This document shows positions 718 to 45,979 of a stretch of DNA of 64,000 nucleotides, one piece after another. The position numbers and the translations under genes were made by a program. Source of the DNA: a virus. Location: the IMG/VR virus record IMGVR_UViG_3300045988_159010. One strand, given 5' to 3'. Position 1 is the first letter of the stretch. Each line of letters opens with the position of its first letter. The notes under the pieces were generated by a model, which did no database searches, was not told the origin of the DNA, and saw only the letters and a program-made list of their open reading frames with translations.

Positions 718-1059
718 TTATATATTTACAGTTGAAGAACCGCAATCAAAAATTACATAGTTGGCATCAGGGTTAGCGCCTATTTCATCAAGGGTATAGG
801 ATGGCTTTGTAGGTGCCTTAGCCCATGCCGGAACATCTGCTCCAAGCCCTGCACCCCAAGGTAGGTTTTCCCATGTGGTCGTACCATCGCCAACTTTAAA
901 TAATACAGTAGGAGCTGTGGTTGTTGTACCAGATGTAAGTGCTGGTACATAACAAAATCCCACTTCACCGGCAAGTAAAACTTTTGATTTGTTTGCAGTC
1001 CAATTAGCAAGTGTATCGTATTTAGACTTAATACGAATATTTAAAGTTTTATCAGCCAT
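718..1059 (-). CDS. tail-fibre protein with conserved phage fibre N-terminal domain (113 aa)
   Basis: ORF with GGAGGATTGGA-ATG RBS; MADKTLNIRI...GDGTTTWENLPW motif shared with 3775-4995, 5008-5533, 5549-6610. Confidence 0.6.
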   Translation of the reverse strand: MADKTLNIRIKSKYDTLANWTANKSKVLLAGEVGFCYVPALTSGTTTTAPTVLFKVGDGTTTWENLPWGAGLGADVPAWAKAPTKPSYTLDEIGANPDANYVIFDCGSSTVNI

Positions 1060-3774: not shown

Positions 3775-4995
3775 TTAACCAATTACAATACTGTAGCTCT
3801 GAGTGCTTGGAATAGAAGCAGGCTCAAAAACCCAAACAGTGTAAGGAGCAGAAGTGTAGCCCTCAGCGCCTTCAACAGCGACAGTGCCAGCCTGCTTTAC
3901 GAAGTCAGCAGTAGCATCAGCACCCATAGCAGAAGGAAGAGTAACTTTAGTCACATTGTGACCCGCAGGGCAAGCAACGATAACCTTAACCGTGCCTTCA
4001 CCAGCAGTAAATGTGCCAATGGTCTTTTTAGCAGCGGTTTCATGCTTTAAGCTACGAATATTAGCAGAGTTAAGTTCAAAATCAGCAGACTTAACAACAC
4101 CATAGAACATATGACGAACGCCAACTAAACTATCACTATCTTTAGAAGCAGAACCAGCAGTAATCTTACCAGCAGGATAAGGATTACCAAGATTGGTCAC
4201 AGGAATACTACCTTCGCCATAAGTAGCAGTAGCAGTAATCTTCTTAGGTGTCGCTTCAGCAATGACATTTTCAAAAGTACCTGTTGCAGTAGCCTTAGCT
4301 TCATCAATACCAGTGCATTTTACATTCCAACTCTGAGCCGTAATACCAGTAGGTGGGCCATAAGTATAACCACCAGCAGATAGTGCCGCTGTATATGTCA
4401 GATTCTTCTTAGTACCAATCTCAAATGTGCCAAAACCACCCTGTGCGCTGAAACTAACAGCAGGATTAGTCTTGGATGGGTTAGCTTCCTGTGCCATTAA
4501 CTTGGACAGAACATATTCAACACTCTTGCCTTTTGCCGCGAATTTAGCAGAACCCGAAGGCTTAGAAAGAGTACCAATAGCAACGGTATAAGTAATGTCA
4601 TCATCAAAATAAACATTATCAGCACGATAGTTGCCATCCATGGCCTTCCATTCGCCGTCATATACATAGGCAGTATAAGAAATCTTATCGCCAGTAATAG
4701 CACGCTTTACAATAGCAGTATCGCCATTATGAAGTTCTGCGGAAGCTACAACACGAGTAATAGCCTGAACATCAGTTTCCTCATTTTTTGGAGTAGCTTC
4801 AAAATTTTGAGCTTCATCGCCGCCAACAAACTTTAAATTGCCCAAGGCAGTAGTGCCATCACCAATCTTCATCTTGCGATTAGTTTGGTCATAAACGATT
4901 TCGCCTTTAAGAGGGACGGCAGTACTCTTTTTTTCAAGAGCTTCAGCAGTATCATTTAATACTTGAATACGAGTATTAAGAGTTTTATCAGCCAT
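3775..4995 (-). CDS. tail-fibre paralogue (406 aa) with the shared N-terminal domain
   Basis: MADKTLNTRIQ...KIGDGTTALGNL; TAGGAGGAAAATGATTT-ATG RBS; TAA stop. Confidence 0.6.
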   Translation of the reverse strand: MADKTLNTRIQVLNDTAEALEKKSTAVPLKGEIVYDQTNRKMKIGDGTTALGNLKFVGGDEAQNFEATPKNEETDVQAITRVVASAELHNGDTAIVKRAITGDKISYTAYVYDGEWKAMDGNYRADNVYFDDDITYTVAIGTLSKPSGSAKFAAKGKSVEYVLSKLMAQEANPSKTNPAVSFSAQGGFGTFEIGTKKNLTYTAALSAGGYTYGPPTGITAQSWNVKCTGIDEAKATATGTFENVIAEATPKKITATATYGEGSIPVTNLGNPYPAGKITAGSASKDSDSLVGVRHMFYGVVKSADFELNSANIRSLKHETAAKKTIGTFTAGEGTVKVIVACPAGHNVTKVTLPSAMGADATADFVKQAGTVAVEGAEGYTSAPYTVWVFEPASIPSTQSYSIVIG

Positions 4996-6945: not shown

Positions 6946-7338
6946 AAATGCAATGAACGAATTTGAAACGAGTGGCGCGGAACTGAGGTGTCGATCCCCA
7001 TCCCTTTCATAGGACCACTTGTTTTCAAGACAAGGCTTACCGCCGGGCAAGTTAATTCCGCATATCATAATTGGCTATAGACCCTTAGCTATCTATGATT
7101 TAAATACGCCACAATTACTATGAAGCTTAGCGATACCAATTATTTTAATAAACAAGACTCATTGAAAAGCCAAAATAAAAACGCGGAATTTAGCTTACTA
7201 AATCAGCTAAAAAGAAAAAACTTTTCAAAATATACTTTATTTTCTTTATTATACTTTTTCATCTATTAGTAATAAATAAGTATTGTAGAGCCTTTACAGG
7301 CAAAAGTTTGCTGAAAATGAGTCTTAATACGTATGGCA

Positions 7339-7419
7339 TAGGAGCAAGGGATTCGAACCCTGGATGTGCAGCTACAATTAGTTTTGGAGACTAACCCAAT
7401 CGACCACTCTGGCACTCCT
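7339..7419 (-). tRNA. tRNA with anticodon loop CUCCAAA (anticodon CCA, Trp-like) and an unusually long variable arm
   Basis: reverse complement gives 7-bp acceptor stem with two G-U pairs, stem TTAGT/ACTAA around loop CTCCAAA, T-arm GGGTTCGAATCCC; no encoded CCA. Confidence 0.4.
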
Positions 7420-7427
7420 ACATATAA

Positions 7428-7859: not shown

Positions 7860-8051
7860 TATTTTCTCCTTAACAATTTTAACAAAGCCCTAAAATCATT
7901 TGCTGGATTTGAACCAACTCTAAAAAATTTTTGCAGAATTTCTTATTTATCCTATTAAAAATTGCTGTGTGGGCTTTTCATAAAACATTATTAATTATAC
8001 TCATTTAATCAATTAGCGTTACCCAAGATACACCACGTGGAGGTTTGATTA

Positions 8052-8122
8052 ATGTATCTCTTGCGGGAGTGGGATTCGAACCCACGATAACCAGTTTATG
8101 AGGCTGGTGTCTTAACCACTTG
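8052..8122 (-). tRNA. tRNA-Met (anticodon CAU)
   Basis: GCGGGATCGTCAAGTGGTTAAGACACCAGCCTCATAAACTGG...GGGTTCGAATCCCACTCCCGCA; loop CTCATAA. Confidence 0.6.
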
Positions 8123-8189
8123 ACGATCCCGCAATATTAACAAGACAATTTTTATACGTTGCGCTACCAATTACGCTATATCCGATCTT

Positions 8190-8262
8190 CGACCAGACAG
8201 TAGGACTCGAACCTACAACACACGGCTCCCAAAGCAAATTTATAATTGCTGTATTGTCTTTC
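8190..8262 (-). tRNA. degenerate tRNA-like element (T-arm GTAGGTTCGAGTCCTAC present, acceptor pairing poor)
   Basis: T-arm consensus on minus strand but no convincing acceptor stem or anticodon arm. Confidence 0.25.
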
Positions 8263-8267
8263 ATAAA

Positions 8268-8341
8268 TGGTGGAGCCAGAGGGAATCGCACCCTCGACTT
8301 TGAATTAAATTCAACGTTTTCCTACCATAAACTATGTCCCC
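8268..8341 (-). tRNA. tRNA with anticodon UUA (tRNA-Sup(TTA)-like; would decode UAA and by wobble UAG) - candidate suppressor, needs tRNAscan-SE
   Basis: GGGGACATAGTTTATGGTAGGAAAACGTTGAATTTAATTCAAAGTCGAGGGTGCGATTCCCTCTGGCTCCACCA; palindromic anticodon arm TTGAATTTAATTCAA centred on TTA; acceptor 6/7 pairs; CCA encoded. Confidence 0.4.
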
Positions 8342-9331: not shown

Positions 9332-9431
9332 AATTTTTGAGGAGTTTAATTAACTTTGCCCGATTTTTATTTTTGTCCACTATTAGCATTACCCATCATC
9401 TACCTCGTGGCGGTTGTGGATCTTAGATGAC

Positions 9432-10314: not shown

Positions 10315-10398
10315 AATTAAACAGCTCCTTTTTATTTACTTTATTCTACATTAGTTAAAACAAGATACACCGCGTGAAGGTTGTAGAATTTGTATCTC

Positions 10399-10991: not shown

Positions 10992-11124
10992 TGGTGCGCC
11001 AGGCGGGGATCGAACCCGCGTTGCCCTGCTTATGGTGCGGAATATTGGATTTGAACCAATACATTAAAATGCTACTTACATCAATTCCACAAAGGCAGGT
11101 GCCATACCACTTGGCCACTGGCGC
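10992..11124 (-). tRNA. tRNA-Gln (anticodon UUG) interrupted by a 58-nt tRNA-like insertion in the anticodon loop (insert about 11032-11089)
   Basis: Outer gene GCGCCAGTGGCCAAGTGGTATGGCA-CCTGC-CTTTG[insert]AA-GCAGG-GCAAC-GCGGGTTCGATCCCCGC-CTGGCGCACCA has a perfect acceptor and Gln-type D-arm; the insert GTGGAAT...TTGGTTCAAATCCAAT-ATTCCGCACCA has its own acceptor-like stem and T-arm. Confidence 0.45.
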
Positions 11125-11475
11125 ATATCGCATTTTAGAGGTTCCGGACCCTCCTGAGCAGCGTCACTCAAATAAGATTTTGCCACCTAACCTTTAAAAT
11201 CTTATCAAAAAACAAACCGGTTTTTTAGCTGAACCTTTAACTCCCTTTCCGCTTTTACTTATATGTCAAGAAACAGCCAAAGAGTAAGTATAAAAAGACA
11301 ACATATGAAGAATTTGTTTATAGACAAGCTTCAAACACTCGTCTTGCGGCCATATTATTTTATAGTCAAGTAAGTAATAACTTCAACCGCATTTCTTTAA
11401 CTTAAATAACCTTTAATAATAGTCCTATGTTAAATAATTAGTTATGGGCGACTATTATTTCCCAGCTTTAATTAA

Positions 11476-11545
11476 TCCTTCTATTGGAATTGAACCAATA
11501 CCTCTACCTCTTTCAGGCAGCATGCTTCCATTACACCAAGAAGTA
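11476..11545 (-). tRNA. tRNA-like locus, anticodon not assignable by eye
   Basis: T-arm ATTGGTTCAATTCCAAT on minus strand; acceptor 6/7; anticodon arm ambiguous. Confidence 0.3.
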
Positions 11546-11629: not shown

Positions 11630-11659
11630 TGGTACCGGTGAAAGGATTCGAACCTTCAC
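11630..11659 (-). ncRNA. tRNA 3'-half fragment (T-arm plus acceptor 3' strand plus CCA) without a 5' half
   Basis: GTGAAGGTTCGAATCCTTTCAC-CGGTACCA; no complementary GGTACCG upstream. Confidence 0.25.
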
Positions 11660-11669
11660 ACCTTATATA

Positions 11670-11945
11670 TTAAATATTTTTCCAATCTTCATCAGAAATT
11701 TTTTTAATTTTTAATGACTAATAAGGTAAATCATAATTTTTACACCATTTTCTGACAGCATTATCAGAAACTTCATACATTTTCCCTATAGTTACAAATG
11801 GTGTAGTTCTAATTAATTCTTTTAAAATTTCTCTATCTGGAGATTTAGAATTTTGTCTAAATTTAGATGCACAAGATTTACATCTAATAGCTTTTAAACA
11901 TATCTCTTTTCCACAATCACAACAATAATTTTTCTTTTGAATATG
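11670..11945 (-). pseudogene. orphan C-terminal fragment of a homing-endonuclease-like DNA-binding domain (Zn finger CxxC...CxxC plus HTH), no start codon, abuts tRNA-Leu
   Basis: frame ...CCDCGKEICLKAIRCKSCASKF...MYEVSDNAVRKWCKNYDLPY-TAG-SLKIKK... begins inside the tRNA with no ATG/GTG/TTG plus RBS. Confidence 0.25.
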
Positions 11946-12030
11946 ATTGGTGCGGGATGAGGGACTCGGACCCTCACACCTGTCGGCCTCACCGTCTAAA
12001 GATGAGTTGTCTACCTATTCCAGCAATCCC
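11946..12030 (-). tRNA. tRNA-Leu (anticodon UAG), type II, CCA encoded
   Basis: GCGGGATTGCTGGAATAGGTAGACAACTCATCTTTAGACGGTGAGG...GGGTCCGAGTCCCTCATCCCGCACCA; loop TTTAGAC; 85 nt. Confidence 0.55.
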
Positions 12031-12483
12031 GCGTATTTACCGATATTTGCTCCACTATTTCCATTTTGAATTGAATGACAATTAGGACATAAAATTTGTA
12101 GATTATTTAAATCATTATCAAAATGGTTTCCATTTTTATGATGTAATTCTAAAGGTAATTTAATTCCTTGCCACATAGAAATACCACAAATTTCACATTT
12201 GTCTTTTTTCAATCCATCTTTTACTAATTTTTGTCTTAAAACAGAAGAGCTAATATACTTATGATTATCAATATAATAAATAGCTGGCTTATAACATCGA
12301 GGATTTTTATTCTATCCTTTTTTATAAGGCTATCCCTTATATTCAATATTCATTTTCTCCAAATAAGAATTTAAAGTTTCAGGTTTACAATGCAACTATT
12401 CACATATATAACGTTTAGATTTTTCTTCGTTTATCCACTAACGAATTTCTTTTTCTTTTTCTAAAATATCTGAACGAGCCATA
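12015..12483 (-). CDS. HNH endonuclease (about 155 aa) with four in-frame TAG codons; 3' end overlaps tRNA-Leu
   Basis: AAAGGAGAGATTGTT-ATG; MARSDILEKEKEIR-TAG-WINEEKSKRYICE-TAG-LHCKPE...-TAG-...-TAG-...KDKCEICGISMW...ELHHKNGNHFDNDLNNLQILCPNCH (HNH); track shows only the last 65 aa. Confidence 0.55.
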
Positions 12484-12812
12484 ACAATCTCTCCTTTCAT
12501 AATATATTAGAAATTAAAAATTATTCATTAATGGAATTGAACCAAAAAATTTTCAGTTCAATTCCATTCGCCTATGCCATTCGGCTACACCGGCTTATGG
12601 TGGAAAGAAGTATTTCACCTTTTATAGCACGCTTCTCCCCGTTCCCGTGCTACCTCTCTCCCAATTAGCTTGATTACAAGAGGATTTCATTATGAAGTTC
12701 ATCATAACTACCCGATTTCCCTTTGCCTCAGTTTATTTTTAATTGGTCTATTGCCAACGGCAGGTGACTAATCTGCCTAGTTCAAATCGGAAACCCCATG
12801 TGTAAGACCAAA

Positions 12813-14829: not shown

Positions 14830-14988
14830 TATTGGAATATGGTGCTCCCGTCGGGATTTGAACCCACATCTGGCGATTTGGCCCAAAATGTTAGATTTGA
14901 ACTTACATCTTTCTTGCGCATAAACTATTTTACCATTTAAACTAATTTTGGATAAGTCGCCGGCTCTGACCAATTGAGCTACGAGAGC
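14830..14988 (-). tRNA. tRNA (Ile-like, anticodon UAU if spliced as CTTAT...AA) interrupted by about 73-nt insertion (about 14879-14951) in the anticodon loop
   Basis: GCTCTCGTAGCTCAATTGGTCAGAGCC-GGCGA-CTTAT[insert CCAAAAT...ATTTTGG]AA-TCGCC...GTGGGTTCAAATCCCGACGGGAGCACCA; insert has terminal 7-bp inverted repeat and an internal GTTCAAATC T-loop-like motif. Confidence 0.4.
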
Positions 14989-25632: not shown

Positions 25633-26412
25633 TTAGATGCGGTCAATGTTATTTACAGTATCATCCATTTTATCATGCCAGAGAAAAATATCCTCTAATG
25701 GGTCCATACAGTTAAAATAAAAGATATTATGTCTATTTACAAAGCGGTCAACATGATGATGCCCGCTGAGCCACACATCATATGTAATCATATTCTTAAT
25801 AGTTTCAAGCCACTCTTCCATAGATGTATCTACAGTAGATTGGTCTACTACTGAAAGAAATTTATCAACTGGCCTAAGAGAATAAGGGCAAGTGTGCGAG
25901 AGCACAAGGTCAAAATGCTTGTTAGTCTGCCGAATAAGTCTCTCTACTTCTGACTTCTCTGCATCAGTCAACTGCTCATCTTCCCACCAGAGCAGATTAT
26001 TTTTAAGACGGTAATATTTATCAACAGAGTAAGCCCCGCAGATGACCAACGTGCGATATTCTCTATCTTCTGTTTTAAGATAATAAACCCCATAATTATC
26101 AAAATATTTAATCAAAGGGTAGGCCGGCTCATACCATACGTTAGCTTGGACATTACTATCCCAAATGCGTTCCATACCTTCAACATTCTCAGGACGTACC
26201 TCATGGTTACCACGCACGCAATAGATAGAATATCCAAACTGGCTTGCATACTTTTTCTTCATATCATCCCGGAATGTATTGCCACTATTGAAACCTACAT
26301 CACCAAGGATAATAATTGCGTAGTCTTTTGGATTTAAAATTCTAAACATTCTTGCGTTAAGCCATGTGAAATCGCCATGACAATCGCCTCTAATCAGATA
26401 GTCCTTGAACAT
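25633..26412 (-). CDS. calcineurin-like metallophosphoesterase (259 aa)
   Basis: GDCHGD, LGDVGFNSG, RGNHE motifs. Confidence 0.65.
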   Translation of the reverse strand: MFKDYLIRGDCHGDFTWLNARMFRILNPKDYAIIILGDVGFNSGNTFRDDMKKKYASQFGYSIYCVRGNHEVRPENVEGMERIWDSNVQANVWYEPAYPLIKYFDNYGVYYLKTEDREYRTLVICGAYSVDKYYRLKNNLLWWEDEQLTDAEKSEVERLIRQTNKHFDLVLSHTCPYSLRPVDKFLSVVDQSTVDTSMEEWLETIKNMITYDVWLSGHHHVDRFVNRHNIFYFNCMDPLEDIFLWHDKMDDTVNNIDRI

Positions 26413-26425
26413 TAAAGGTCCCTCC

Positions 26426-26617
26426 TTACGTATTTTCTTCTTTAGCCAACTCTTCCTTTAATTCTTCTACTTTTTCTATAACTGCACTAAGCACAACAGC
26501 TTGAGCACCAAATCTGGTAAAATGTTCAGTCAGCCATTTACCAAGATCATCAAAATTATTTTCAATTTCTTCAATATCTCGACTATCAATTTCAATAGTC
26601 ATATTATCTTCAGACAT
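26426..26617 (-). CDS. small acidic protein (63 aa)
   Basis: ORF. Confidence 0.4.
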   Translation of the reverse strand: MSEDNMTIEIDSRDIEEIENNFDDLGKWLTEHFTRFGAQAVVLSAVIEKVEELKEELAKEENT

Positions 26618-27425
26618 TTAACATTTCCTTTACAATTCTTTTTTTCATAATAAGATAAACAATCTTATTCATAAAATCTTCAAGCTCTTCATTACCTTCA
26701 TCCTTGGTCTTAGAACAATAATCATCAGCTACTCTTGTAATATTACTAATAGCAGTATTGGCTACAATTCGTGCAGTTTCAAGATTATAATGATAATTTT
26801 TTACATCAAGAAGATAATCACCCATTGGGGCTTGAAGACAATCTGCATATTTAACACCATCAATATAACGTCCAAGGTATCTTTCAATACGAAGTAGATG
26901 CATAAGCTGCTTGCTATCATAACCATATGTATCAATCAGATGGGCCTTAGTAGGATATCTATGTTCCATTGCATGGTATTTTTCCATAGCAATACCCTTC
27001 ATTGTCTTAACTGCCTTGTAAGGATTATAGCGTGCAATAGCTTCACGCTCATTAAGCAGTGCCTGCCACTCATTCCAATACGTACTTGATGCCATTTTAT
27101 AAGGCGTGAAGATACATTCAAGATAAGCCATATTCTGTTTCTTCAAACAATCAATAAACAAACGAATATCTTTAAAATCAATATGTTCATCATTAGGAAG
27201 AATCTTGGTATAAGATACCGGCTTCTTATTCAATACAATATCTTCAAATGAAGGAAGAACAATAAGGCGGGTATCTACATCAGAATTTTGAGTATCAAGA
27301 CCATAATTCTGGCTACCATAAGCCATTAAACTAACCCAATTTTCGCTTCTAATATTAGCTGCTTCTAAATGAGTTTCTACCTTATCCATAACCCATTTAT
27401 CTGAATGGTAATTCATAATTATCAC
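26610..27425 (-). CDS. Pol-beta-superfamily nucleotidyltransferase (271 aa)
   Basis: YGSQNYGLDTQNSDVDTRLIV matches hG[GS]-x9-13-DhD NTase signature. Confidence 0.5.
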   Translation of the reverse strand: MIIMNYHSDKWVMDKVETHLEAANIRSENWVSLMAYGSQNYGLDTQNSDVDTRLIVLPSFEDIVLNKKPVSYTKILPNDEHIDFKDIRLFIDCLKKQNMAYLECIFTPYKMASSTYWNEWQALLNEREAIARYNPYKAVKTMKGIAMEKYHAMEHRYPTKAHLIDTYGYDSKQLMHLLRIERYLGRYIDGVKYADCLQAPMGDYLLDVKNYHYNLETARIVANTAISNITRVADDYCSKTKDEGNEELEDFMNKIVYLIMKKRIVKEMLNV

Positions 27426-33465: not shown

Positions 33466-34065
33466 TTACGAGCAAGTAATAGAACCTTCCGGCTGTTTAC
33501 TCAATTGTGCAGTTGCAGTATAATCATATTTAACAAGTTCAACAGTGCCATCTTCATTAACTACACACTTATAAATATGTTTAAGTTCAGCATCATTTTC
33601 AACCGTTTGCTTAATAAGCTTGGCACTATTGATCGCCGCTTTACGGATTGCCTCTTGGCTTTCTTCTTTAAGAGCACGGCAATCTTCTCTTATAAGCTTG
33701 CAGAATTCAAGACCTTTAAGCAGTTCGTCTTCTTGCTTTGCTTTAGTTTTTTTATTTTCCCACCATTGGATAAATTTACGATATTCCTTATAAGAACTAA
33801 AATACACATAAAAATTATTTTCGCCACCATTACGAGTACGCTTACCAGTCTTATAAGAAATGCTATTACCAGTAACACACCATTTATCAGGTTTAATAGC
33901 AGAGTATTTCATTACTTCATCGAAGGTAAGCTCAACAGTTTTTTCATGCCATTTAATAGCTCCTTCTTTAAAACCCTGATAATTTTCCCAATCTTTGAAA
34001 TAACTAAATACTGTAAAACAGATAATAGCAAATACAATAAAAATACCTAAAACAATCAAAAACAT
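33466..34065 (-). CDS. membrane-anchored hypothetical protein (199 aa)
   Basis: N-terminal TM MFLIVLGIFIVFAIICFTVF. Confidence 0.45.
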   Translation of the reverse strand: MFLIVLGIFIVFAIICFTVFSYFKDWENYQGFKEGAIKWHEKTVELTFDEVMKYSAIKPDKWCVTGNSISYKTGKRTRNGGENNFYVYFSSYKEYRKFIQWWENKKTKAKQEDELLKGLEFCKLIREDCRALKEESQEAIRKAAINSAKLIKQTVENDAELKHIYKCVVNEDGTVELVKYDYTATAQLSKQPEGSITCS

Positions 34066-34610
34066 TACTTATTATCCCCCTTCTCCTGCCGCAAGTCATG
34101 GTCTTCACCATCGTAAATTTCACGATATTTAGTGAACAGAGAACCATCATTGTAATAATATCTAATATTATTCCAACCATTATAATGGTCAGTCAAATTA
34201 GGCCAGTCTACAATACGTGCCTGCCGTTCAAGCTCCTGCTGCGGCACTACTCTATGTCTCTGGGAGTTCCATTCCTTTGAATTTTCTACGCTAGCAATAA
34301 TAACCATAAGCTGATAGTTATCGAAATGGGGGAAACGGCTTCTGATTTCTTCTCTCTGTCCAAGAGTCAAACAGTTAGTATCAATGATAATATCTGCATT
34401 GTCCAGTTCTGCACAATGTACAATCTGATACAATGTCTGCCAAACTTCGAACTTATGACTACGGTTGCATTCATCACCATTAAAGACAGCATACAATTCA
34501 TCAGGGTTTACATACCGGATGTGATTCATCTTTGCGAAGGATTTCGCGAATGTAGTCTTTCCATTTGCACTCAAGCCGCACATCATATATAGAGTCGCCA
34601 TCAACTTCAT
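34065..34610 (-). CDS. P-loop kinase (polynucleotide/nucleoside kinase-like, 181 aa)
   Basis: Walker A GLSANGKTT; size and context like phage Pnk kinase domains. Confidence 0.5.
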   Translation of the reverse strand: MKLMATLYMMCGLSANGKTTFAKSFAKMNHIRYVNPDELYAVFNGDECNRSHKFEVWQTLYQIVHCAELDNADIIIDTNCLTLGQREEIRSRFPHFDNYQLMVIIASVENSKEWNSQRHRVVPQQELERQARIVDWPNLTDHYNGWNNIRYYYNDGSLFTKYREIYDGEDHDLRQEKGDNK

Positions 34611-36879: not shown

Positions 36880-39003
36880 TTAGTTCTCCTTTTTAAAATC
36901 AAAAATTGTTTTTAATTCTTCTACTTTATCGAGCTGTTCCCAAGGGCTATTGCATTCAATGCGACCAAAATGACCGAAGCAAGCATAGGGCAGATAACGA
37001 GTATGCTTTAAATCAAATTTATGAATAATACTGCGTGGTGCAAAATCAAATGTCTGATTAACTGCATCAAGAATTTCAGCAATAGGTTTCTTCTCTGTGC
37101 CAAAACAATTAATATCAATAGATGCAGGTTCTGTCTGCCCAATGATATAAGCAACTTGAATCATGCACTTATCGCAAACGCCAGAAGCTACAAGATTTTT
37201 AGCTACATAACGTGCCATATATGCACCACTACGGTCTACCTTACTGGGGTCTTTGCCGCTAAAACAATTGCCTGTAATAAAAACTCGATTATTATATCTT
37301 AATACAAGATTATGAGAAGGTACATTAATACAATACATCCAAGGATCATTATCTTCATAATCTTCAATAGTTAGATTGGCAATTGAAGAACCTGAAGTTC
37401 TGAATGGAGTAGAATATTTATATTTACCTTGTCTTACTTCATAACAAATACTTCTACGAGTATAATTTTCACTGAATGTTTCACCTATTCTATCATCAAT
37501 AGAAAAATGAGAAGATGTGCCATAAACTGCCATAAAAATAAATTGAATAAAATCGGCTTCATCTTTATGTGTGGTTCTAAAAACACAATCTCTATCTCCA
37601 TCCCATTTAATTACTTCATCAGCAATTATTTGAGCTTGATGCAAATTGCATTTAGATAAACATTCATTCATTTTTTTATTTACGAAGGAAGGCTTATACC
37701 AAAAAATACTACAATCATTATCTGGGGTTTCCTTATAATCAAGTCCTGTTGAAGCGAATAGTTTTCTTAATGCCTCTTTTTTATATTTCTTTTTAACTCT
37801 AATTCTTCCAGTCCATCCTGAATTCTCTTTTAGAATAGTACCATCTGCACAAAATGCTACTTGAAGTCTAATTTCATCATCAGTTAAATCAAGGCCAGGA
37901 TTATCCTTAAAATCATAAGTAAAATAAATAGGGATTTGAATACTTCTAAACCCATTATTTTTATAATAATAGTCTAAAATTTCTTGACAAGTTTTCTTCT
38001 GATAATTTCCTTTAGATGTTTTATAGAGAACATTATGATTATCAGATAATATCATATCCAATGATTTATTAGTAGCAATATGATACATTTTAGTTTTAGG
38101 TAGCCTTACAAATTCACCATTAACAAATGAAATCTTGCCATCATCCCATTGAGCTACTTTATCATCTGAAGAAAATTCAGAGATTTTTTTCCACCCATTA
38201 AGGGTTAAAAATTCTGTATCTCCATTTACGCATCCACCACCATGCGGAGCGTAGCCACCATATGTATCTACAACGATTTTACGTCCTGTTAATCCAGTAT
38301 CAGCCTGGGGACCGCCCTTCACAAACTTACCTGTTGGGTTAATATAAAATTTACAATCTTTTTTAATGGCATAACCTTGAAGGGCAATATTACAAATGTT
38401 CGTAATATCGGGCGTTATTTCCTTAATACTATACTTGTCTTTGTGTTGGGCCGATACGACAATTGTATCTACCCCTTCAAAGTTGCCATCATCATCGTAT
38501 TGGACAGTTATCTGGCATTTGCCGTCAGGTAATGCCCAAGGTAGCAAATCATTTTTATACTTACTAAACATAATGACCGAGATATTGTTAGCAAGTTGCT
38601 GAGCGATAGGCATATAATTTTCTGTTTCATTGGTTGCATAACCAAACATCATGCCTTGGTCGCCAGCACCATCCCTATCAACACCCGCAGCGATGTCAGG
38701 GGATTGATTTACTACATTAATAATATATGAACAAGTGTCGCAGTTAAATCCTGCTTCATCATTGTCATAACCAATAAATCTTAAAGTCTCTCTTGCAATT
38801 TCCTGATAAGGAATAGATTGTTCTGTTTTAGCTGTAATTTCTCCCATAATATGGAAGATGCCTGGGCTAATAGTACATTCACAAGCTACTCGTGCATCAG
38901 GGTCAAGCTGGAGGACATAATCCAGAATAGCATCACTTACCTAATCACAAACCTTATCAGGGTGACCGGCAAAAACACTCTCACTGGTAAATAAATAACT
39001 CAT
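36880..39003 (-). CDS. metK: S-adenosylmethionine synthetase (MetK) interrupted by an intein; one in-frame TAG (38941-38943) aligning with conserved Gln
   Basis: GGAGGAAATATTAT-ATG; N-terminus [30 protein letters not shown] versus E. coli GHPDKIADQISDAVLD; GAGDQGMMFGYATNET; C-extein CFSGKDPSKVDRSGAYMARYVAKNLVASG...QVAYIIG...YACFGHFGR; host split at HGGG^(A/C)FSGKD. Confidence 0.7.
37267..38232 (-). mobile_element. intein (about 322 aa) with LAGLIDADG-type homing-endonuclease domain inside metK
   Basis: starts CVNGDTEFLTLNG (block A), contains LQVAFCADGTILKE, ends ...VLRYNNRVFITGN followed by Cys plus-1 (CFSGKD). Confidence 0.55.
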
Positions 39004-44569: not shown

Positions 44570-45979
44570 TTAATTATCCTCCAGAGTCATTTCTTCTTCA
44601 ATTTCTTCCATGTCCGGCACTTCGGCATCAACCTTAATTAGATTCTCAAGTACCTTAAAATTATAAGATTTATCTTTTGCAACGTCGAAACGTGTACCAT
44701 TCATCTTGCGAATAACTACACCTTCAATTACATGAGAAGAATCAATCGTAGAAGGAATATCCTCATACTTGGCAATCCGTGCGAGGAAATCCTCTTCAGT
44801 GGTGTAGATGAAACGTTCCAGTTCAGGCACAGTTTCAAAACCCATCTGTTCTGCACGCTGCTTAACAAGGTCCCAAGGATATTCAATTACTACACCTTCA
44901 GGAGTAGTATAAGTCATACGGTAAACAAAATAGCGGTTAAGCGGTCTTTCTTCATGAGTACCATCACCATAAGTGTAATAACCAGTTTCAGTACATCCAT
45001 AAGAAAAAGTGGTAGTCTTACCATACTGCTTAATAAATTGCTTATCTTTTGTTTTAGTATTATCTCCACGAGACATAATAGGAACTGCACCGCCATAATT
45101 ATCTTTGTAGAAGCCTGCAATTTCACCGAAGCATTCCTCATTAGGCAGAAGCTTACCCTTGAAACGCTCGCCCCAAGCCTTACGGAAGTCATCATTGCCA
45201 TAAAAGCCGCCGGTGCTATTGTTAGTAAGGACAGTGCGGCGAGTACCAATCAGATAACGCATTTCAGTTTTAGGGGTAAGGTGAGACTGTGCGGACATAC
45301 GCCACTTCTTCGGCAGCCAGTTGCTATGTGCAATAAGCTTGGTAAGGAAGAAACCGTTTTCGCCAACAATTGCAGTCTGATATGCGTTTCGAGAACTGGT
45401 ACCATGGACCTTCTCGGTCAAGCAGATAATGTCGCCCGGCTTAAACATATCCATATTAAAACGAAGCTGGGGAGTATCAATATGTTCTGCGAAGAATGGA
45501 TACTTAATGCGGCATTTCTTTGCAGACTTATGGTTGTGTTCGCCGCGTGCAGTAGACTCTGAAACTCTGGGCTTATGCATCGGCACATACTTCTCGGCGA
45601 TTACATGACCATTGAAGGTAGATACAATATCACCTTCGGCCAGATTACTGATGTCACCAAAAGGTGTAAGGCAAGTAAGTGGAAGGATAAGACCTTCGGA
45701 CTTATTACCGCGAAGACGAATTGCACCAATATTACGCTTCACAGGGTCAATGAAACCGCCCGCCGGATTACCATTCTCATCCTTGCGGCGGAAGAGGTCA
45801 TTTGCCTTACCAAACTCTTCACTAATTTGACCATCCGTGGGGAAATAGACGTAGAGGTCATTTTCATTCACGGATTTATCAACAATGGTAGTAATACCAA
45901 ATACTTCACAGGCATTCAGACGATTAGCATTCTCCGCAGGTCTAATGTTTTTTACTTTACAAACATATACATTATACAT
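44570..45979 (-). CDS. ATP-dependent RNA ligase-family nucleotidyltransferase (469 aa)
   Basis: motif I KVHGTS (KxHGT), motif IV EGVVIRK; N-terminal extra domain. Confidence 0.55.
   Translation of the reverse strand: MYNVYVCKVKNIRPAENANRLNACEVFGITTIVDKSVNENDLYVYFPTDGQISEEFGKANDLFRRKDENGNPAGGFIDPVKRNIGAIRLRGNKSEGLILPLTCLTPFGDISNLAEGDIVSTFNGHVIAEKYVPMHKPRVSESTARGEHNHKSAKKCRIKYPFFAEHIDTPQLRFNMDMFKPGDIICLTEKVHGTSSRNAYQTAIVGENGFFLTKLIAHSNWLPKKWRMSAQSHLTPKTEMRYLIGTRRTVLTNNSTGGFYGNDDFRKAWGERFKGKLLPNEECFGEIAGFYKDNYGGAVPIMSRGDNTKTKDKQFIKQYGKTTTFSYGCTETGYYTYGDGTHEERPLNRYFVYRMTYTTPEGVVIEYPWDLVKQRAEQMGFETVPELERFIYTTEEDFLARIAKYEDIPSTIDSSHVIEGVVIRKMNGTRFDVAKDKSYNFKVLENLIKVDAEVPDMEEIEEEMTLEDN

Follow-up and report, generated by a model that had tools for sequence, protein, structure and literature searches.

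In the 64,000-nucleotide (nt) stretch of viral DNA held as IMG/VR record IMGVR_UViG_3300045988_159010 (hereafter the window, whose numbering is used throughout unless a related locus is named), we identified a 133-nt tRNA gene, read on the minus strand from 11124 to 10992, whose anticodon loop is interrupted by a 58-nt insert that is itself shaped like a small tRNA. We have high confidence that the insert is a mobile element mimicking tRNA and that the gene which it interrupts is a tRNA-Lys(UUU). On balance, we favour a reading in which a tRNA-Lys is split by a mobile, tRNA-shaped intron lacking an open reading frame (ORF), which RNase P and a 3' endonuclease would excise and a phage ligase would seal. 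Our confidence that the intron is spliced is moderate, and that it follows the specific route through RNase P, RNase Z and an Rnl5-type ligase is lower.

The structural elements that an earlier note on this DNA had listed are all present on the minus strand, both in the insert and in the outer tRNA. The latter possesses a 7-bp acceptor stem (GCGCCAG/CTGGCGC), a D-arm (GCCAAGTGGTATGGC), an anticodon stem (CCTGC/GCAGG) and a T-arm (GCGGGTTCGATCCCCGC, pairing as GCGGG-TTCGATC-CCCGC) followed by A73 and an encoded CCA, and without the insert forms a cloverleaf with D, anticodon and T arms whose anticodon loop has 7 nt. The acceptor 5' strand, D-arm, anticodon stem 5' strand and C32, U33, U34 and U35 lie in the 5' exon; U36, A37, A38, the anticodon stem 3' strand, variable loop, T-arm, acceptor 3' strand, A73 and CCA lie in the 3' exon. 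ARAGORN in default mode called no tRNA at 10992-11124, and with its intron search called one with a 58-nt intron at c[10992,11124]. Sliding the 58-nt cut allows four loops, namely CUUUGAA (UUG, Gln), CUUUUAA (UUU, Lys), CUUAUAA (UAU, Ile) and CUCAUAA (CAU), the last being the one picked by ARAGORN; the resulting tRNA-Met(CAT) label was rejected as an arbitrary cut placement contradicted by the empty-site ortholog and by the rule followed by the intron family, both described below. Also set aside was an Rfam tRNA match at 11036-11124 (30.7 bits), a chimera of the 5' half of the outer tRNA and the 3' half of the inner one, whose acceptor strands remain unpaired.

The placement of the cut was decided by a syntenic contig, L006, found by a pattern scan for the anticodon arm and 93-96% identical to the window in its flanks. 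At the homologous position L006 carries an uninterrupted tRNA with anticodon UUU, scoring 77 bits on the Rfam tRNA model RF00005 and reading CCTGC CTTTTAA GCAGG, with an anticodon stem identical to that of the window and a D-arm (GCCTAGTGGTAAGGC) of the same type; its 3' flank matches that of L001, a further relative. The alignment gap between window and L006 is exactly GTGGAAT...CGCACCA, 11033-11090, and the ends of the insert coincide base-for-base with those of the mini-tRNA, from its +1 G to its CCA. Loop and gap together identify the outer gene, by its sequence, as a tRNA-Lys(UUU), and place the insert at 11033-11090, between anticodon bases 35 and 36 (U35/U36), one base away from the interval of 11032-11089 given previously. 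Joined, the exons form a 75-nt tRNA which ARAGORN in default mode calls tRNA-Lys(ttt), with anticodon UUU, A73, homology to uninterrupted tRNA-Lys genes and an anticodon arm identical to that of the tRNA-Lys in MT836296; charging with lysine is predicted. Searches for close homologs with the exact DNA pattern in viral scans returned L001 only, and BLAST against INPHARED phages gave nothing beyond generic tRNA similarity. The tRNA-Lys is likely needed by the phage, since AAA ranks fifth in frequency among the codons of the window (50 per 1000) and ARAGORN with intron search found no other tRNA-Lys gene in the whole window.

The earlier note had instead proposed a tRNA-Gln(UUG) whose insert might serve a regulatory role tied to the recoding of TAG to glutamine, a reading that we regard as very improbable. 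In its favour, CUUUGAA, the loop left when 11032-11089 is removed, is a permissible one, bacterial tRNA-Gln has a similar D-arm, the form spliced in this way matches phage tRNA-Gln genes by BLAST, and ARAGORN labels some family members Gln. Against this, the empty-site ortholog in L006 carries UUU, the rule of the intron family likewise yields UUU, the D-arm described as Gln-type recurs in the uninterrupted tRNA-Lys(UUU) genes of L006 and L013, and the ARAGORN label of Lys family members shifts among Gln, Met, Thr, His, Stop and Lys with the placement of the cut. Moreover, a discriminator A73 is typical of tRNA-Lys rather than tRNA-Gln. The suggested link to TAG recoding loses its basis because the outer tRNA reads as Lys and not Gln. 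TAG does seemingly act as a sense codon in this group of phages, as had been noted: a conserved 204-codon HNH ORF within the intron of L010 (L010 2634-3248) has nine in-frame TAGs, four of which align with Gln in L012, and many ORFs of the window lengthen on TAG read-through. Comparison of stop-free stretches under different codes did not discriminate between them in this AT-rich genome; Pfam scans were run with TAG translated as Q.

The insert comprises, in order, an acceptor strand GTGGAAT, the dinucleotide TG, a hairpin resembling a D-arm (ATGT-AAGTA-GCAT), a linker of 8 nt where an anticodon arm would stand, a T-arm ATTGGTTCAAATCCAAT (ATTGG-TTCAAAT-CCAAT), the strand ATTCCGC that closes the 7-bp terminal helix with GTGGAAT, a discriminator A and CCA. 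It is the "top half" of a tRNA, with a 7-bp acceptor on a 5-bp T-arm, a D-like hairpin, a discriminator and a CCA end. The description of a nested mini-tRNA is borne out not only by the ARAGORN intron call but by the insert alone (11036-11090), which scores 33.0 bits on RF00005 (gathering score 29, E = 4.8e-6) in an alignment that covers the acceptor and the D and T arms but no anticodon arm. The minimum-free-energy fold likewise gives one cloverleaf nested in another, and the full 12/12-bp geometry arose in only 13 of 200,000 shuffles of the insert. In default mode ARAGORN called neither this insert nor a second one at 14879-14951 as a decoding tRNA. That the layout reflects a collapsed tandem of tRNA fragments at 11030-11090, an assembly artefact for which its unusual appearance and nothing else speaks, is extremely improbable: L001, an independent assembly of ~95% identity, has the same nested structure, and members of the family are present in more than 10 other metagenomes from several projects, with identical architecture accompanied by divergence and compensatory substitutions. 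The sole difference of L001 within the insert, A to G, converts an A-U to a G-U pair and keeps the pairing.

The insert conforms to neither of the two established intron types that were considered. As had been stated, it is not a group I intron: at 58 nt it falls well short of a P3-P9 core, which typically requires at least 200 nt, and neither the window region nor nine HNH-bearing or mini-intron relatives contain an Rfam match to a group I core or to any intron or ribozyme; other members, at 44-60 nt, are also far below the size of such a core. Inspection and folding of the junctions found no bulge-helix-bulge (BHB) motif; instead, the anticodon stem is separated from the inner acceptor by opposed unpaired segments of 4 and 7 nt, a 4x7 internal loop.

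Comparison with relatives revealed one tRNA-Lys site in three states: empty (L006), occupied by 58 nt (the window and L001) and occupied by 735 nt with an HNH ORF (L010, L014 and L015). Flanks are near-identical across these states, with one base separating the exons of L006 from those of L010. Alleles with and without the insert at one and the same site, together with an endonuclease gene of predicted activity inside some members, are the marks of a mobile intron. In L010, which is ~96% identical to the window, the L006-type tRNA-Lys body is cut at the same site (CTTT/TAA, the slash marking the insertion) by an element that begins GATTTAG-TA-GCAT-AAGTA-ATGC and ends ATAAG-TTCAAAT-CTTGT-TTAAATC-A-CCA, and whose ORF matches Pfam HNH/HNH_2, with its stop codon inside the T-stem. 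The HNH gene of the larger members occupies the place of the missing anticodon arm. The 58-nt copy is built on their plan, with a 7-bp stem, 2 nt, a hairpin of 4 bp whose loop reads AAGTA, a T-arm whose loop reads TTCAAAT, and N-CCA; in place of the ORF of the other members it has 8 nt.

Searches of viral contigs and metagenomes with the HNH protein extended the family to about 20 instances from independent metagenomes. HNH-bearing members measure 734-779 nt and reside in tRNA-Lys(UUU) genes of many different bodies (L014, L015, L016, L017, L018, L020, which is on the same contig as L012, L022 and L027), with one in a tRNA-Asn (L033); ORF-less members are given in Table 1. In nearly all, a canonical loop of 7 nt, bearing U33 and a purine at position 37, results when the sequence from +1 to N(CCA) is cut out, and its anticodon fits the tRNA body, whether Lys (interrupted at 34/35 or 35/36), Asn, Ile(UAU) or class II Leu(UAA). 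A U always precedes the intron, which itself starts with G in every type except that represented by the second insert of the window (type B, below). L020 lacks the CCA, and its intron end directly follows the discriminator, at what would be the canonical RNase Z cut site. Imperfect members that count against our interpretation are L027, with a UG tail and a degenerate T-loop, and L033, with only five of seven acceptor pairs. We draw our confidence in a mobile, tRNA-mimicking family from the empty, mini and HNH-bearing states, the endonuclease at the position of the anticodon arm, and the diversity of the HNH lineages, whose proteins are 44-96% identical overall. A scan of genome collections with the HNH profile retrieved only distant HNH relatives in metagenome-assembled genomes and no clue to the host.

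Free-standing HNH genes of the same family were also found adjoining tRNA-Lys or tRNA-Asn genes (L013 1328-1411; L024, L036, L037, L047 and L055). These loci often have two or three copies of tRNA-Lys, and some of their tRNA-Lys(UUU) genes have an unusually long variable arm. In L017, a RAGATH-33 RNA (753-879, plus strand; 121.8 bits, above the gathering score) lies ~190 nt upstream of the intron-bearing tRNA-Lys.

To examine conservation of structure, we aligned the outer anticodon stem, inner acceptor stem and inner T-stem of 17 distinct members, which come from different outer tRNAs and without exception possess an acceptor-like and a T-like helix. Paired cells amounted to 97.2%, compared to 61.7% in shuffles and about 40% in slid controls, with changes on both sides in 16 of the 17 pairs; the parser maximised pairing, which biases the alignment toward structure, although its positions were fixed relative to the T-loop and intron ends and its search space was small. 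All outer tRNAs are intact cloverleaves, and their anticodon stem is 100% paired, with all five pairs covarying across hosts.

These results bear on the possibility that the insert is an unspliced scar, in which HNH-driven cassettes insert tRNA-derived DNA and the tRNA-Lys is dead, its intact appearance reflecting a recent insertion. Such damage does occur in the same array: a 906-bp HNH cassette disrupts, without rescue, a tRNA(UAG) of the window whose counterparts in L001, L006 and L010 are intact, a point that weighs against splicing of the tRNA-Lys. Phage tRNA genes are, furthermore, often dispensable. However, the intron lineages are old, their HNH proteins being as little as 44-68% identical, while the outer tRNAs remain perfect cloverleaves with a covarying, fully paired anticodon stem. 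Although other parts of the 44-60-nt minis decay, precisely the acceptor/T minihelix, with compensatory changes, and the NCCA persist, and the boundaries always restore the 7-nt loop; the lack of a second tRNA-Lys gene in the window, where AAA is among the top five codons, points in the same direction. The integrity of the outer tRNAs across old lineages and the selective retention of the minihelix weaken the case for a dead gene, which we consider unlikely.

A second nested tRNA, an interrupted tRNA-Ile(UAU) at 14840-14988, was identified by ARAGORN intron search on the whole window. Its 73-nt tRNA-like intron lies between positions 36 and 37 and runs from CCAAAAT to ATTTTGG, followed by G and CCA (ending GCCA). 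The outer tRNA scores 42.7 bits on the Rfam tRNA model with a 76-nt insertion, and the insert alone, which we term type B, 35.5 bits without a proper anticodon arm. Removal of the insert leaves CUUAU/AA (the slash marking the junction), the spliced form being called tRNA-Ile(tat) by ARAGORN, and the anticodon arm resembles that of an uninterrupted tRNA-Ile(UAU) in L035; a Trp(CCA) label given by ARAGORN to the same locus was rejected as an arbitrary cut placement contradicted by the family rule. Type B is conserved in L001, L006, L008 and L010, and its acceptor stem changes in a compensatory manner among L001, L006 and L008 (A-U, G-C and G-U pairs), whereas a substitution in the degenerate anticodon-arm region of relatives is uncompensated and breaks pairing. 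In L006 the same insert occupies a different outer tRNA body, with an anticodon stem that differs by a compensatory pair.

Under the route that we favour, the precursor would fold as a cloverleaf nested inside a cloverleaf. RNase P would cut 5' of the inner G+1, always preceded by its preferred -1 base, U, leaving a 5' exon with a 3'-OH, and an RNase Z/BN-type endonuclease would cut past the inner CCA, or past the discriminator in members lacking CCA, leaving a 5'-phosphate on the 3' exon. Held together by pairing in the outer acceptor and anticodon stems, the exon halves would be sealed by the ATP-dependent ligase of the phage, with a kinase, a phosphoesterase and RlaP acting as back-up end healers, to give a 75-nt tRNA-Lys(UUU) whose spliced RNA would read ...CCUGCCUUU joined to UAAGCAGG... 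(also written GGCACCTGCCTTT joined to TAAGCAGGGCAACGCGGG). HNH-bearing versions would home into empty tRNA alleles, the 58-nt version being a passenger without its own endonuclease gene. An acceptor/T-arm minihelix, NCCA or a discriminator, and U(-1)/G(+1) are features recognised by RNase P and tRNA 3'-end enzymes, and a bare acceptor/T-arm minihelix with ACCA is a minimal substrate for RNase P and CCA-end enzymes. The corresponding sequence features (a 12-bp coaxial helix, T-loop, 3' NCCA or discriminator, and U(-1)/G(+1)) occur in 15 of the 17 members, for which cleavage is predicted, and the intron junctions appear to coincide with RNase P and RNase Z cut sites. The 3'-OH and 5'-phosphate ends predicted for the exons would be of the kind that ATP-dependent RNA ligases join.

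The window encodes such a ligase together with further candidate RNA-repair genes (Table 1). The ligase combines an N-terminal OB-fold with an adenylyltransferase domain, the architecture of Rnl5/DraRnl (DRB0094), with the motif EKVHGT (KxxG) visible; it is our candidate for the enzyme that would seal the exons. We found 4,801 homologs at E <= 1e-10, a copy 91% identical on the contig holding L006, and a weak N-terminal match to the Naegleria RNA ligase in a PDB sequence search; a ligase search of viral contigs, limited to exact words, returned two loci. The AAA_33 protein may be a polynucleotide 5'-kinase for end healing, to judge from its domain. RlaP has been reported to add one or two nucleotides to damaged RNA 3' ends and to help restore repaired tRNAs (PMC12776372). 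DRB0094-family ligases are reported from 54.5% of gut phages with theta ribozymes beside tRNAs, a 140-fold enrichment for which no role was established (PMC10879173), and the physiological roles of Rnl5 enzymes have been described as uncharted (PMC5397189).

Table 1. Features of the window, with ORF-less introns of related loci (lengths in place of coordinates).
Feature	Position	Strand	Evidence or remarks
tRNA-shaped intron, 58 nt, ORF-less	11033..11090	-	L006 gap, Rfam, fold, shuffles, covariation
5' exon of tRNA-Lys(UUU), by sequence	11091..11124	-	sequence (GCGCCAGTGGCCAAGTGGTATGGCACCTGCCTTT), L006 alignment, ARAGORN intron search
3' exon of tRNA-Lys(UUU), by sequence	10992..11032	-	sequence, L006 alignment
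Nested tRNA-Ile(UAU)	14840..14988	-	exons 14952-14988 and 14840-14878; intron 14879-14951
RNA ligase	44570..45979	-	Pfam RNA_ligase PF09414, 30.1 bits (gathering 27), and PHA02142 OB-fold PF21189
Calcineurin-like phosphoesterase	25633-26412	-	Pfam Metallophos, 52 bits
RlaP nucleotidyltransferase	26610-27416	-	RlaP PF10127, 30.7 bits (gathering 23); adjoins the phosphoesterase
P-loop kinase	34065..34610	-	Pfam AAA_33, 48.8 bits
ORF-less intron, L015	60 nt		in tRNA-Asn(GUU); ARAGORN label His
ORF-less introns, L028-L030	44 nt		in tRNA-Lys(UUU); bare acceptor, T-arm and ACCA; beside a free-standing HNH gene
ORF-less intron, L033	50 nt		in class II tRNA-Leu(UAA)

Several further points weigh against excision by RNase P and RNase Z with sealing by an Rnl5-type ligase. 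If U(-1) paired with the discriminator A73, the position at which RNase P cuts could move by one base. For RNase Z, CCA generally acts as an anti-determinant, and cutting right after it is known only for some enzymes, such as Thermotoga RNase Z and E. coli RNase BN. The break considered here lies in a single-stranded anticodon loop, the type of substrate used by T4 Rnl1, whereas Rnl5-family ligases have been characterised as sealers of duplex nicks (PMC1807946, PMC5397189). Finally, relatives contain a second type of intron that is not tRNA-like, for which reason these phages may hold a splicing route independent of tRNA mimicry. Introns of this second type are found next to the anticodon in the tRNA-Val(UAC) of L006 (c[936,1492]) and the tRNA-Asp(GUC) of L010 ([4403,4941]); at 464-480 nt, they consist almost entirely of an ORF of the PDDEXK_5 (I-Ssp6803I) family (E = 8e-26), leaving no room for a ribozyme, and their ends are not tRNA-like, a long helix between anticodon and intron being predicted.

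A serious alternative to the RNase P/Z route is that another endonuclease, of phage or host origin, cuts both junctions, leaving 2',3'-cyclic phosphate and 5'-OH ends which the phage kinase and phosphoesterase heal and the ligase seals, in the manner of T4 Pnkp/Rnl1 or yeast Trl1. The tRNA shape would then fold or stabilise the excised RNA (an HNH mRNA with paired ends) or would merely mark its origin. The window has a complete heal-and-seal set (AAA_33 kinase, Metallophos, RlaP and Rnl), and the non-tRNA-like introns with PD-(D/E)XK ORFs, which interrupt the same loop positions in relatives, must use another mode of recognition. Nonetheless, the facing of unpaired segments in a 4x7 internal loop provides no BHB motif, no candidate splicing endonuclease was identified, and both the exact fit of the junctions to the inner +1 and CCA or discriminator ends and the existence of a 44-nt minimal member that is purely minihelix would be left unexplained. 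We therefore regard cleavage by a different endonuclease as rather unlikely, and retain excision through tRNA mimicry as the preferred interpretation.

The tRNA array of the window has a number of other unusual features. The broken gene mentioned above is a 76-nt class I tRNA(UAG) (11630-12594, minus strand), interrupted by ~906 bp at 11659-12564. Its 5' part is followed by a perfect 13-bp hairpin (AATGGAATTGAAC/GTTCAATTCCATT) and then by an HNH ORF (11670-12500) that is open only if TAG is sense and within which an 85-nt class II tRNA-Leu(UAG) (11948-12032) lies in frame; last come the T-arm and the 3' acceptor strand of the broken gene. tRNA(CUA) is absent from the window and present in L008 and L017. 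A 71-nt tRNA at 8271-8341 (minus strand; Rfam 48.5 bits), missed by ARAGORN in default mode and conserved in L001 and L006, has the anticodon region GTTGA-ATTTAAT-TCAAA or, in another reading, a 5-nt loop; with the possible anticodon UUA, it would be a stop-codon suppressor. At 7334-7421 (minus strand), a tRNA of 88 nt with anticodon CCA, called Trp, has a long variable arm and an unusual body for a Trp decoder; its best Rfam match is to tRNA-Sec, at 38.8 bits, short of the gathering score (47). The gene called Phe(AAA) at 11475-11545 (minus strand), tRNA-like and 71 nt long, with a loop TGAAAGA lacking U33, a mismatched acceptor and no CCA, is conserved in L001, L006, L010, L014 and L015, always near tRNA-Lys.

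The tRNA-Met, tRNA-Ala and tRNA-Glu genes (minus strand) have no encoded CCA. Sequences following the first two (8005-8060 and 9364-9431, minus strand) weakly match the Rfam F. prausnitzii hepatitis delta virus (HDV)-like ribozyme (24.9 and 24.5 bits; gathering score 44), and the trailers after tRNA-Met and tRNA-Glu (the latter at ~10330-10398) both start with AGATACA. Trailers of these CCA-less tRNAs are probably "theta" ribozymes of the kind reported in PMC10879173, and the repair set of phosphoesterase, RlaP, AAA_33 protein and Rnl5-like ligase may also heal the ends with 2',3'-cyclic phosphate that HDV-like ribozymes generate. Between tRNA genes of three relatives there is also a weak, recurrent Rfam match to YrlA (Y RNA-like; 29-30 bits, gathering score 69) at 8154-8224 of the window (minus strand), 2528-2598 of L001 and 255-325 of L006. 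Elsewhere in the window, a MetK-like S-adenosylmethionine synthetase gene (36880-39003, minus strand; 707 codons) appears from its translation to carry an intein-like insertion (...GGGC/VNGDTEF ... VLRYNNRVFITGN/CFSGKD..., slashes marking the junctions), and a 406-aa protein (3775-4995, minus strand) has an Mtd_N domain at 26.0 bits, just under the gathering score of 26.3, which hints at a target gene of a diversity-generating retroelement.

The earlier note had held that an insert of this kind belongs to no recognised class of bacterial or phage intron, and neither Rfam nor the literature contradicts it: in the literature searched, outside of which most subscription journals lie, there was no description of tRNA-like, minihelix or nested-tRNA introns. 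In our judgement the element is a real feature outside the known intron classes, and the family is apparently undescribed. It shares with the group I introns of tRNA genes (cyanobacterial tRNA-fMet with I-Ssp6803I and tRNA-Leu(UAA), and those of Patescibacteria, PMC13011429) an anticodon-loop site, presence or absence at one precise position, an optional homing endonuclease and ORF-less derivatives, but has no group I core, reduces to members of 44-60 nt, consists of a tRNA mimic ending in NCCA, and would depend on protein or ribonucleoprotein (RNP) for splicing where group I introns catalyse their own. With the tRNA introns of archaea and eukaryotes, defined by the BHB motif and processed by EndA/Sen and RtcB or Trl1, the family shares a short, non-self-splicing insert adjoining the anticodon and a logic of endonuclease plus ligase with exon halves held by the tRNA body. 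It differs in lacking a BHB, in lying at positions 34/35 to 36/37 rather than 37/38 and in belonging to a bacterial virus, and the ends predicted for it (3'-OH and 5'-phosphate) are opposite to those of EndA products.

Other systems offer partial parallels. In MALAT1 mascRNA, plant mitochondrial t-elements and mitochondrial tRNA punctuation, acceptor/T-arm mimics likewise mark exact RNase P/Z cleavage sites; in none of these are the flanks rejoined, however, whereas here the mimic lies inside a tRNA whose halves need ligation. T4 Pnkp/Rnl1 repair after cleavage by the anticodon nuclease PrrC provides a precedent for a phage ligase resealing a break in the anticodon loop of tRNA-Lys(UUU), although that break is damage inflicted by the host with 2',3'-cyclic phosphate and 5'-OH ends, while excision here would be programmed and the ligase resembles Rnl5 rather than Rnl1. 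Split and permuted tRNA genes (Nanoarchaeum equitans, Caldivirga and Cyanidioschyzon merolae) also have halves divided at the anticodon loop and rejoined after processing, but depend on BHB recognition, occur as separate or permuted genes and contain no nested tRNA mimic.

We tentatively propose, at not quite even confidence, that these elements constitute a new class of mobile intron, "tRNA-mimic introns", which would have no catalytic RNA and would be excised through mimicry of RNase P and RNase Z/BN substrates and rejoined by Rnl5-family ligases. Bacteria and their viruses are not known to have introns other than the self-splicing types (group I and group II). If true, our proposal would add protein- or RNP-dependent tRNA splicing to the bacterial world, as a counterpart of the enzymatic tRNA splicing of archaea and eukaryotes, and would give the widespread Rnl5/DRB0094 ligases of gut phages a physiological job. 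The anticodon loops of tRNA-Lys(UUU) and tRNA-Asn(GUU) are targets of known anticodon nucleases, and the presence of both among the intron targets hints that selfish introns exploit the tRNA-repair machinery of phages. Our proposal would also suggest a function for the sets of RlaP, kinase and phosphoesterase repair genes that show strong enrichment in gut phages bearing tRNA arrays (PMC10879173, PMC5397189). Standard tRNA finders miss such genes or mislabel their anticodon, distorting inferences of phage codon supply and stop recoding, and a self-marking excision cassette of 44-58 nt represents a natural analogue of engineered tRNA-flanked RNA processing arrays.

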